Shown one piece after another: positions 31,523 through 33,715 of a DNA stretch of 64,000 nt. The stretch lies in the sequence record OM386655.1; one strand, 5' to 3'. The translations under genes were made by a program, and so were the position numbers. Position 1 is the first letter of the stretch; every line of letters begins with the position of its first letter. Below the pieces are notes generated by a model that saw only the letters and a program-made list of their open reading frames with translations, searched no databases and was not told the origin of the DNA. This DNA is from Escherichia phage vB_EcoM_ESCO10.

Positions 31523-32887
31523 ATGACACAAACTACAGGTGAAAAAGAAGGTGTATTTTACGGTTATTCTCTTTATGATTTGAATAAAGAAAAACTAATA
31601 ACTTTTGATGAATTACTTACGGGTATTCGAGGAGAGCCTGGAGAAAATGGCGATATTGGACCAAAAGGTGACCAAGGTCCTGTGGGACCCCAAGGTATTC
31701 AAGGGGAAACAGGGGCCCAAGGTATTCAGGGTATTCAAGGTCTAAAAGGTGATAAGGGTGACCAAGGTATTCAAGGACTAAAAGGAGATAAAGGCGACCA
31801 AGGTATTCAAGGAGTTCCTGGAACTCAGGGTCCACAGGGTATTCAAGGTCTAAAAGGTGATAAGGGTGACCAAGGTATTCAAGGGGAAACAGGGGCCCAA
31901 GGTATTCAGGGTATTCAAGGAGTTCCAGGTGCCAAAGGAGATATAGGCCCAGTCGGTCCGGCAGGTTTAACATGGAAAGGTTCTTGGAATATTGCAACTG
32001 CTTACGCAGTTAACGAAGCCGTTGGACACGATGGAAGCCTATATTTCGCCACAGCTGAAAGCACCGGACAAACTCCTTCATTAGGTAGCGATTACTGGGA
32101 AGTCTTAGCAACGGAAGGGCCTGAAGGTCGGCAGGGTGTCATGGGTCCGCAAGGACCACAAGGTATTCAAGGACCACAAGGTATTCAAGGTCCTAAAGGT
32201 GATACAGGCGAAACTGGACTACAAGGTCTTAAAGGCGACAAAGGAGAGACAGGTTTAACCGGGCCACAAGGACTACAAGGACCTAAAGGTGATACTGGTG
32301 AAACCGGTCCACAAGGACTACAAGGGCCTAAAGGTGATACGGGTGACAAAGGAGAGACAGGTTTAACCGGACCACAAGGTATTCGTGGTATTCAAGGTAT
32401 TGCTGGAGTCCAAGGACCTAAAGGTGATAAGGGTGACAAAGGAGATACAGGTGCCACTGGTCCAGCCTACGAGTATAAAAAAGTATCTAGATTTGGAATG
32501 CCTGCCGCGGGTATATCAATTTCTACTCCTTTATTCAATTCAGGATTAACAATAAATGTGGTAGGCGTCAAAACTGATACATTTAGATTTACCCTTACTA
32601 ATACAGGTTCAGAGTCTAGAACTATTGATGGTGAACTAATTTATTTTGACCCGGATGGTGCAATAAAAAGATTTGTTGTTAATTTTTCAATAGCTGCAGG
32701 TGCGACAACCAATTTCGGTTCGTACACGTATGCAATTACAACTCCCAGAGTTTTTACTTTAAATTTTAATGCTACTGGGACTATACAACACGCCCACGAA
32801 GTAAAATATTTTGTAATAGGACGCTCTAGTTATACGGAAAATACTTCTGCTGGTGCTACTGTTACTATTGAAAAACTCTATAACTAA
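31523..32887 (+). CDS. collagen-like (Gly-X-Y repeat) protein with non-collagen spacer and C-terminal globular domain
   Basis: 454 aa; two runs of ~37 uninterrupted G-X-Y triplets ([16 protein letters not shown]... and [13 protein letters not shown]...); spacer W-x4-Y...G..Y.A...P...YW; GGGGAT SD. Confidence 0.8.
31691..31920 (+). repeat. direct DNA repeats encoding collagen triplets (identical 50-mer at 31691-31740 and 31871-31920)
   Basis: Identical string caaggtattcaaggggaaacaggggcccaaggtattcagggtattcaagg seen twice 180 bp apart. Confidence 0.8.
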
Positions 32888-32896
32888 GGACTACAA

Positions 32897-33715
32897 ATGG
32901 CTATTACATTAAGTCCATCTTCAATAGACGTAGAATACGGTGACTCTTATACAGTCACTGCTAATATTCCAGATATTAGCCCTGGTTCATCTATTGTGTA
33001 TAACTGGACTAAGAATAAAAAATTTATTAGTTCCGGAACTAATGTATTCACTGAAATAGCATCATCGGTAGAAACATTAAGTATTGCGTGCCGAATTGAA
33101 ATTATATCACCGGATAAAAACACTGAATATATTTTATCGGATTCTTGCTTGGTTAATGTTAGTAAAAACACAAAAGCGGACGGTATAAATTCTCAGCTAG
33201 TTTATTCACCAGATGTTCATAAAATAGGTGACCAAGTTATTCTTTCTGTAGAATCCCGCCATGTAGACCCTGGCTATATTAAAGGAGTTATTTGGAAAGA
33301 TCCATCGGGTAATGTCGTGTCAATTGGTAAAGAATATACGCATAAGATTAAGACGACAGAAGATGTTGTAGATGTAAAAATAGATTTGGCTTCTGAAAAT
33401 TATGCATATTACAATAAAACACTTCAAATTGTTCTTAAAGCTATTGAAGAAGATAATTCGGAGTGTAGTGTAAGATATATTCATCCTTTAGACCACAGGG
33501 ATTCAGGATACATCTGGATGGGTTGGTGGGTTATGGACGAAATTGAAAGGGCAACGGTAGAAGGATTAAATTGGAAAGCGCCGGACGGTACTGACCTGAA
33601 GTATAAGTGCGACTTGAAAACTCTTTCTATAATGCTTGACTTATATAATAATGTTGAAGTACAAGAATCAAGGAATGGTTATATTCTAAACAGGGCAGAT
33701 TTACTTCCAAAATAA
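32897..33715 (+). CDS. Hoc-like protein (second copy, shorter) with Hoc C-terminal capsid-binding domain
   Basis: 272 aa; C-terminus YIHPLDHRDSGYIWMGWWVMDEIERAT...VEVQESRNGYILNRADL parallels Hoc C-terminus; 9 nt downstream of collagen-like gene. Confidence 0.75.
   Translation: MAITLSPSSIDVEYGDSYTVTANIPDISPGSSIVYNWTKNKKFISSGTNVFTEIASSVETLSIACRIEIISPDKNTEYILSDSCLVNVSKNTKADGINSQLVYSPDVHKIGDQVILSVESRHVDPGYIKGVIWKDPSGNVVSIGKEYTHKIKTTEDVVDVKIDLASENYAYYNKTLQIVLKAIEEDNSECSVRYIHPLDHRDSGYIWMGWWVMDEIERATVEGLNWKAPDGTDLKYKCDLKTLSIMLDLYNNVEVQESRNGYILNRADLLPK

Follow-up and report, generated by a model that had tools for sequence, protein, structure and literature searches.

Does a T4-type phage that carries a collagen-like gene and a second Hoc-type gene beside its canonical hoc possess a second system for decorating its capsid? 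The question is raised by a stretch of 64,000 nucleotides (nt) from Escherichia phage vB_EcoM_ESCO10 (sequence record OM386655.1; the whole stretch is referred to below as the window), in which an initial annotation had picked out, at positions 31523-33715, a two-gene cassette on the plus strand between rnlB and hoc. The list of open reading frames (ORFs) bears out the exact extents of the two genes, 31523-32887 (gene 1, collagen-like) and 32897-33715 (gene 2, Hoc-like), which lie on the same strand, 9 nt apart, and are convergent with hoc. The phage is a T4-type coliphage of the genus Gaprivervirus (VR5/VR7/ESCO10-like) with 90.8% identity to phage VR5 over window positions 27000-31600, the VR phages being described as low-temperature phages, and the cassette itself is about 95% identical to those of VR5 and VR7 outside the repeats. 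Our main observation is that a collagen-like gene followed by a short Hoc-like gene forms a conserved and tightly linked pair across the Straboviridae, a pattern which is new here. That this pair amounts to a second, possibly co-assembling, capsid decoration system, as had been proposed at the outset, is on the sequence evidence assembled below plausible but unproven.

The assignment of gene 2 is solid as judged from its alignments: the product is a true paralogue of Hoc. T4 Hoc (PDB 5vf3_Z) was the sole PDB match in a phmmer search (E 2.7e-29), and the protein also matches phrog_1149, the family labelled 'Hoc-like head decoration' (E 2.7e-57). The Hoc signature which had been read at the end of the gene (...RYIHPLDHRDSGYIWMGWWVMD...VQESRNGYIL) is indeed present, and the C-terminal similarity is supported by phmmer and PHROG alike. 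Residues 164-268 align with residues 263-366 of T4 Hoc (83.4 bits), so that the C-terminal domain is covered end to end, the capsid-binding domain of T4 Hoc being residues ~281-376. The residues of T4 Hoc reported to contact gp23 or to maintain the fold are Tyr293, His295, Arg300, Trp309/310, Asp313 and the Glu355-Gly359 (ESRNG) loop (Fokine et al., 2023; PMC10385173); the Hoc-like protein has every one of them unchanged in its alignment (RYIHPLDHRDSGYIWMGWWVMDEI...VQESRNGYIL), which also conserves His299/Arg300 and Trp306. On the other side of the interface, the gp23 of the window (25472-27031) keeps the Hoc-binding segment Gly326-Arg344, including Asp336 and Arg344, with the single conservative change S327A. 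Because both the contact residues and the docking loop of gp23 are conserved, the Hoc-like protein would be expected at the centres of gp23 hexamers, the same site as canonical Hoc.

The remainder of the gene 2 product also has the build of a Hoc. Its AlphaFold2 (AF2) model (predicted local distance difference test, pLDDT, 84) consists of two Ig-like beta-sandwiches and an alpha/beta C-terminal domain; Foldseek matched this model to two-Ig receptors (E 8e-8) and to the Hoc of RB49 (3shs, E 9.7e-7), and Pfam Ig_2 was matched weakly (E 0.0026). The protein is 31% identical to the canonical Hoc of the window (BLASTP, E 4e-34), 100% identical to ESCO10_00116 and 98.9% identical to VR7 gp197. It resembles T4 Hoc (PDB 5vf3, 8t1x) in its capsid-binding domain with the key contacts and in its tandem N-terminal Ig-like domains, and is acidic (isoelectric point, pI, 4.9). 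The differences are that T4 Hoc has three Ig domains in 376 amino acids (aa) whereas the Hoc-like protein has two in 272, and that the Hoc-like gene is a second copy on the opposite strand beside the canonical hoc, preceded in the module by a collagen-like gene. Two cysteines, one before the first strand of the C-terminal domain and one at the start of helix 2, occur in most of the module Hoc-like proteins and in the canonical Hoc of the window, and a disulfide in the capsid-binding domain of such Hocs is possible; T4 Hoc lacks both cysteines. The motif KYKC[DE]L together with this cysteine pair was considered as a signature unique to the module proteins and was rejected, as the cysteine positions are found in the canonical Hoc of the window as well. 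Phages with two Hocs are already known, namely Serratia phage Muldoon, with a 314-aa two-Ig Hoc, and Enterobacter phage PG7 (PMC10385173). These share with the window phage the possession of two proteins with the Hoc capsid-binding domain, including a short two-Ig version; they differ in that no collagen-like partner has been described, and the two hoc genes of Muldoon are in tandem. The same paper, in which neither VR7 nor collagen is mentioned, proposes using Hoc's C-terminal domain for displaying other ligands or functions (PMC10385173).

Gene 1 encodes a collagen-like protein whose parts are listed in Table 1. The two Gly-X-Y blocks that had been noticed initially are present and both are uninterrupted, although the figure of about 74 triplets has to be corrected to 78 (39 + 39). 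Pfam Collagen (PF01391) is matched at 131.5 bits against a cut-off of 27.2, and the coding DNA contains in-frame tandem repeats with a period of 36/72/108. The blocks are low in proline (8-10%) and abundant in glutamine and charged residues, like other bacterial and phage collagens. The product would be a homotrimeric triple helix, in which case the two blocks together would make a stalk of ~67 nm, against 18 nm for Hoc. The protein matches phrog_5073, a family labelled tail fibre, over residues 1-445 (E 7e-107) and is 86% identical to VR7 ORF196; its exact sequence was absent from a collection of 15 billion proteins, and a full-length homologue search was swamped by the collagen repeats.

The N-terminal 33 aa are 100% identical in VR7 and VR25, despite the differing C-terminus and Hoc-like protein, and the motif is also found in Kosakonia phage 305 and in collagen proteins of Vequintavirinae. 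It has no Pfam match and is shared only with other collagen-like proteins of uncertain location. The interruption between the blocks (aa 149-199) matches Pfam CBM_5_12 (PF02839) with an E value of 0.0037 and 17.7 bits, below the cut-off of 26.2; IME08 gp169 does so at E 0.0058, precomputed PF02839 assignments are attached to several homologues built in the same way, and the CBM5/12-like interruption is kept in all module instances. For the C-terminal head, the AF2 model is of moderate confidence (pLDDT 68.6; predicted template modelling score, pTM, 0.65). Sequence relatives of the head amounted to three clusters among 1.8 billion representatives by exhaustive phmmer and to one by word-indexed search. 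Its best fold matches are the C-terminal parts of the phage collagen-like proteins AHP42, BECP10 and Aeromonas 65.2, the last being the partner of hoc-2 (template modelling, TM, scores 0.53-0.65), while in the PDB Foldseek recovered only generic beta-sandwiches (TM 0.3-0.48) and no C1q/TNF jelly roll. The overall plan, in which a collagen stalk on a particle surface joins an anchor at the N-terminus to a globular head at the C-terminus, is that of Bacillus BclA and C1q-type proteins, and PDB 1wck (BclA-type) matches the gene 1 product within the collagen region; the difference is that the head model of the window was not recovered as a C1q/TNF jelly roll. In the deposited VR7 sequence ORF196 ends early, and with the C-terminal domain of the window as query the tblastn match runs on in a different frame as far as the ORF197 start (VR7 L001 5900-6080), which points to a frameshift or sequencing error in the VR7 collagen-like gene.

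Table 1. Coordinates of the features of the cassette and its surroundings in the window.
Feature	Position	Strand	Description
Left hairpin	30014-30033		between gp24(2) and rnlB
Cassette-specific upstream region	31446-31522	+	late-promoter-like AATAAATA at 31493-31500, GGGGGA Shine-Dalgarno, then ATG
Collagen-like fibre gene (gene 1)	31523-32887	+	ORF; 454 aa, 46.4 kDa, pI 4.9
N-terminal motif	31523-31621	+	33 aa; putative virion-attachment or trimer-registration element
Collagen block 1	31622-31972	+	aa 34-150; 39 Gly-X-Y triplets, ~33 nm if triple-helical
Interruption	31973-32116	+	48 aa; CBM5/12-like motif WKGSW..Y..NEAV..GSLYFA....P....YWEVLA
Collagen block 2	32117-32467	+	aa 199-315; 39 Gly-X-Y triplets, ~33 nm if triple-helical
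C-terminal globular head	32468-32884	+	139 aa, pI 8.9; predicted eight-stranded beta-sandwich
Short Hoc paralogue (gene 2)	32897-33715	+	ORF; 272 aa, 30.5 kDa, pI 4.9
Ig-like domains of gene 2 product			~aa 1-90 and 95-185
Hoc capsid-binding domain of gene 2 product	33464-33712		~aa 190-272
Right hairpin	33718-33737		shared terminator of the convergent Hoc-like and hoc genes
Canonical hoc	33742-34845	-	367 aa from ATG; annotated hoc in VR7

The distribution of the pair was analysed in a hand-curated set of 15 Straboviridae genomes or contigs with hosts from Escherichia to Aeromonas, and in this comparison across T4-like phages the order collagen-like gene, then short Hoc-like gene, recurs in all 15. 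The carriers are the window phage and VR25 in Gaprivervirus (VR5, VR7 and VR26 also carry the cassette, outside the 15); KIT01, JS10, dhabil, ABTNLsp5 and, with the pair split, IME08 in Dhakavirus; Kosakonia phage 305 in Kanagawavirus; CGG4-1 in Gelderlandvirus; Cronus and FBB1 in Roskildevirus; the Aeromonas phages AS4 and GomatiRiver_11; Aeromonas phage 65 in the Emmerichvirinae; and the metagenomic contig L012. The two genes are adjacent in 14 of the 15, with a gap of between -8 (overlap) and +29 nt, and adjacent pairs span several genera and two subfamilies; in AS4, GomatiRiver_11, Aeromonas phage 65 and FBB1 the stop and start codons overlap. The module Hoc-like proteins are held to a length of 272-288 aa (14 of the 15), whereas canonical Hocs in these phages vary between 178 and 960 aa, and this although full-length identity among the Hoc-like proteins is only ~30-50% in most pairs (62-93% in close pairs). 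The N-terminus of the fibre comes in two related types, one short and the other long (LFGHDGRGN..., in the modules of the IME08 clade). These types track two clades of the Hoc-like protein, while the C-terminal head types cross the clades: VR25 and KIT01 have Hoc-like proteins 93% identical and heads that are unrelated. Such a pattern would be expected of an N-terminus that has to fit its Hoc-like protein and of a distal head free to diversify.

Individual carriers add further detail. Kosakonia phage 305 (L004 5989-8642) has the module with no canonical hoc on the minus strand and a 363-nt gap before inh, showing that the short Hoc can be the sole Hoc of a phage. In Cronus and FBB1 the pair stands directly after gp24, on the late head-gene strand. 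In IME08 (L005 10550-10620) a remnant of the long motif, ..YGHDGRG.., is encoded directly upstream of the Hoc-like gene, and the collagen/CBM/head body (7920-9107), which lacks the N-terminal motif, is found 1.5 kb away after gene 24b; this would be either a rearrangement splitting the fibre gene or a misassembly across repeats. In a close relative of the cassette on a metagenomic contig (L008 1845-2597) the Hoc-like gene is preceded by just two ORFs, of 54 aa and of 129 aa, the latter corresponding to the head alone, and here either a true deletion of the collagen stalk or a collapse of the repeats in short-read assembly may be the cause.

Comparison with the empty site of JS98 by BLAST delimited the inserted DNA to window positions 31446-33715, with the left edge at 31445/31446. 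The gene order around it is gp23, gp24(1) and gp24(2) on the plus strand, rnlB and a DUF2774/24.3-like ORF on the minus strand, the collagen-like and Hoc-like genes on the plus strand, hoc and inh on the minus strand, and uvsW on the plus strand. The placing of the insertion between hoc and the 24.x ORFs had been correct, and T4 has, as had been said, only small ORFs there, which lie on the minus strand; the same is true of JS98, both phages having nothing between 24.3 and hoc and neither of the cassette genes. What did not survive was the implied novelty of the locus, since the cassette is annotated in several deposited genomes. In VR7, VR5, VR25 and VR26 the RefSeq/GenBank labels are 'collagen triple helix repeat domain protein / tail fiber protein' for gene 1 and 'similar to T4 Hoc / Hoc-like head decoration' for gene 2, and in Aeromonas phage 65 the pair is annotated as 'collagen-like' and 'hoc-2, second copy of the hoc gene'. 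The function of the cassette has not been studied as far as our literature search shows, the VR7 genome paper having been outside its reach: within this scope no paper treats the VR7 cassette or the collagen/Hoc pairing, and the papers on phiTE, phi92, Bas63 and the Kosakonia phage hold no data on collagen-like or Hoc-like proteins. An Rfam scan of the region gave no match. Between rnlB and the cassette the window has one small minus-strand ORF (79 aa, DUF2774, 24.3-like; 31047-31373) and lacks the 24.2 (Y10B-family) homologue that VR7 and VR25 possess. Upstream, the capsid-vertex gene gp24 is present as tandem paralogues on the plus strand (27449-28729 and 28730-30013; 426 and 427 aa), annotated 24(1)/24(2) in VR7 and also found as a pair in JS98, IME08, Kosakonia 305 and Cronus.

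The upstream region of the inserted DNA contains a candidate late promoter. The element AATAAATA, which precedes the ATG of gene 1 by 22 nt, is kept in VR7 and VR25; the same 7/8 variant precedes inh, a head-protein gene, in both the window phage and T4, and ABTNLsp5 has a perfect TATAAATA upstream of its module. We go no further than to suggest late expression of the cassette, because matches with one mismatch occur at chance frequency and the module instances range from a perfect TATAAATA to nothing recognisable. A terminator scan found none between the collagen-like and Hoc-like genes, and gene 2 is preceded by a Shine-Dalgarno sequence. A scan for Sigma-70-type promoters showed no enrichment (17 found against 15.7 expected). 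The divergent spacer between inh and uvsW (35576-35597) contains two such elements only a few bases apart, a perfect TATAAATA for uvsW on the plus strand and the AATAAATA for inh on the minus strand, and T4 has the same arrangement.

Bidirectional hairpins had been taken initially as the bounds of the cassette. Such hairpins exist on both sides, with 8-bp stems, -14 to -17 kcal/mol and z scores of -3.6 to -4.8, but a role as borders was rejected: the left one lies 1.5 kb away, separated from the cassette by rnlB and the 24.3-like ORF, the window contains three copies of the motif, and an equivalent is present at the empty site of JS98. The hairpin AAGGGCC-NNNN-GGCCCTT is found at 6236-6253, 30015-30032 and 33719-33736 of the 64 kb, against no occurrence expected by chance. 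Its third copy at 6236 marks it as a generic terminator, and the loop, which is GCAA or its complement TTGC depending on orientation, as a terminator element that is reused. JS98 has its own hoc terminator hairpin in the position of the right-hand one, with the loop in the opposite orientation and ~77-89% identity. The right hairpin has a weak T-tract on the plus strand, and the terminator scan lists it for the minus strand only. The copy at 6236 stands just upstream of a TATAAATA at 6261.

Relatives of the gene 1 product also occur in phages without a Hoc homologue nearby. In CR3-like Vequintavirinae a protein with the same N-terminal motif, in one case with a homologous head, is encoded between the capsid genes and the head-tail adaptor, and 2-3 collagen paralogues per genome share this motif; in the siphovirus Rogue1 the gene for a collagen/CBM/collagen/head protein has the prohead protease/cement protein on one side and the major capsid gene on the other. 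CR3 gp011 and Rogue1 gp21 thus share with gene 1 the succession of collagen, CBM5/12-like element, collagen and beta-sandwich head. In all three lineages (Straboviridae, Vequintavirinae and that of Rogue1) the family lies outside the baseplate/tail-fibre cluster, and these head-module contexts favour a location on the head or neck over one on the baseplate. The gene 1 product shares a full-length profile match to phrog_5073 with the collagen 'tail fibres' of phages and prophages (Ghosh et al., 2012; PMC3368898); it should be noted that the tail location of these proteins is a matter of annotation and that the Straboviridae copies alone have a Hoc-like partner. The label 'tail fiber protein' is probably wrong for the collagen family in at least three phage lineages. 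The one proteomic result that our search brought up concerns CB7_10, a larger and different collagen protein of the CR3-like block, which was found in Certrevirus virions and read by its authors as a tail fibre (PMC7344957). The CR3-like block (CR3 L003 1988-8362; L007; L011) consists of uncharacterised fibres between capsid and neck genes, and in it a protein with a domain like the N-terminal one of T4 Inh is encoded beside a 1093-aa collagen protein with a weak fibritin-C match. The CR3 gp009 family was considered as a hidden Hoc-like adaptor of the Vequintavirinae and rejected (hhalign probability 0.3-1.4%).

From these data we tentatively prefer, with a little less than even confidence, the reading that the cassette is a late accessory module of the virion surface, with the short Hoc docking on gp23 hexamers and linked in function to the fibre, probably as its capsid anchor. 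The C-terminal domain of the Hoc-like protein would dock in one copy per capsomer at the centre of the expanded gp23 hexamers, as in T4 Hoc, sharing the hexamer sites with the canonical 367-aa Hoc or competing for them. The gene 1 product would be a homotrimeric fibre of ~70 nm, made of two 33-nm segments with a CBM5/12-like knot and a variable distal beta-sandwich head. The two genes would be co-transcribed, probably late, and their products would act together, the short and length-locked Hoc being a T4-capsid-specific anchor or partner for the conserved N-terminus of the fibre. The resulting particle would bear two kinds of head fibre, a short Ig-type Hoc and a long collagen-type fibre with a glycan-binding-like module and an exchangeable head, and the latter may serve adhesion to surfaces or cells. 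A stricter form of this proposal, in which the Hoc-like protein is a dedicated adaptor in the hexamer centres that holds the N-termini of the ~70-nm trimeric fibre, we regard as doubtful. Conceivably, three two-Ig arms from neighbouring hexamers meet on the local three-fold axis, which would explain the strict length of 272-288 aa of the Hoc-like proteins.

A precedent for collagen on a phage head is available. The gp12 of SPP1 is very small, has a short collagen motif and binds directly to hexamer centres. It is a collagen-like trimer decorating the capsid, and a role in host adhesion has been proposed (PMC7602432). The likeness would lie in having a collagen-like trimer on a phage capsid, the collagen motif being the feature that it shares with the gene 1 product, which differs in its 454 aa, 78 triplets, CBM-like insert, globular head and pairing with a Hoc-type protein.

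Several points weigh against a fibre mounted on the short Hoc. There is a mismatch of symmetry between a trimeric fibre and a monomeric, one-per-hexamer Hoc. The co-segregation of N-terminus and Hoc-like protein is based on two clades only, so that common descent could explain it. In IME08, rnlB/24.3 separates the two genes (1513 nt), PspYZU05 encodes a short Hoc-like protein and lacks a collagen gene, and the second Hocs of Muldoon and PG7 were described without a collagen partner (PMC10385173). The N-terminal motif and the architecture in Vequintavirinae, and a related architecture in Drexlerviridae, occur with no Hoc homologue nearby, which means that the fibre is mountable without a Hoc-like partner; these Hoc-less head-module fibres would thus support a head location and at the same time weaken an obligatory Hoc anchor. 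The promoter match is only 7/8, in a class of matches no more frequent than chance overall, and in several module instances nothing resembling a late promoter is seen within 120 nt. 'Tail fiber protein' is the name that gene 1 receives from PHROGs and RefSeq, and the literature within reach of our search contains no virion mass spectrometry, transcript timing, electron microscopy or interaction data for the module proteins.

The 'tail fiber' name corresponds to the main alternative, which we consider somewhat unlikely and yet to be taken seriously, namely that gene 1 encodes an accessory fibre of the tail or neck (side tail fibre or whisker-like), which its N-terminal motif fastens to a tail or neck component, with no physical link to the Hoc-like protein, the two genes sharing only an insertion hot-spot and a transcript. 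Besides phrog_5073, many other collagen PHROGs and the RefSeq entries are labelled tail fibre; these labels, however, stem from the collagen repeats and not from experiments. A conserved N-terminus with a variable head, and the 2-3 paralogues per CR3-like genome, are typical of receptor-binding fibres, the motif works in phages without Hoc, and CB7_10 of the same block is a virion protein read as a tail fibre (PMC7344957). The CR3-like gene stands immediately upstream of the head-tail adaptor and neck genes. We take this position to be comparable to that of wac upstream of genes 13/14 in T4. Against this, the gene is never found in the baseplate/tail-fibre cluster in three lineages and always among capsid or decoration genes, and a tail or neck location leaves unexplained why, across deep divergence, the Hoc-like gene is kept, with its translation coupled and its length locked.

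It is unlikely, in our judgement, that the two products are independent head decorations without mutual contact, the short Hoc being a competing second Hoc and the collagen trimer making its own contact with the capsid, for instance at local three-fold positions or, like SPP1 gp12, at hexamer centres. Such an arrangement would fit the two-Hoc phages Muldoon and PG7 and the short Hoc-like protein of PspYZU05, all of which do without a collagen partner, the unaided binding of the SPP1 gp12 trimer to hexamer centres (PMC7602432) and the homologous fibres in the head modules of Hoc-less phages. It does not predict the near-obligatory adjacency, the four stop/start overlaps or the length lock of the Hoc-like protein, nor the co-segregation of N-terminal type and Hoc-like clade across swaps of the head-coding segment that lies between them, and it demands that one short motif recognise both the T4 gp23 capsid and the T=13 shell of Vequintavirinae. 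Far less probable still is a non-structural cassette, either a selfish or decaying insert or one whose products act in the infected cell. The site is a known variable one, flanked by homing endonuclease genes in relatives (segD/segE in T4, IME08), and some copies appear damaged (the 3' frameshift of VR7, the split in IME08, the collapsed L008). Nevertheless, both ORFs are intact in the window and in most relatives, the capsid-contact residues of Hoc are all conserved, the pair persists from Escherichia to Aeromonas phages, and neither the ORF list nor a Pfam scan revealed an endonuclease or mobility gene within the cassette. The accessory head module remains the reading that we prefer, at the strength given above.

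In textbooks Hoc stands as the model of an Ig-type head fibre that the phage can do without and that is believed to mediate adherence and the dispersion of particles; it is widely used in phage display and vaccine design. If the two proteins of the cassette prove functionally unrelated, the locus would be an ordinary accessory insert already in GenBank. If a second, length-locked Hoc does work together with a collagen fibre, T4-type capsids would have a modular and exchangeable display reaching ~70 nm, against the 18 nm of Hoc, which would bear on the adherence of phages to mucus, biofilm and cell surfaces, on an ecology independent of host range, and on engineering. Should the short Hoc indeed be the adaptor of the fibre, many Straboviridae would have a head-fibre system of two components that has so far gone unrecognised, its heads being rapidly exchangeable and its fibre carrying a glycan-binding-like module.

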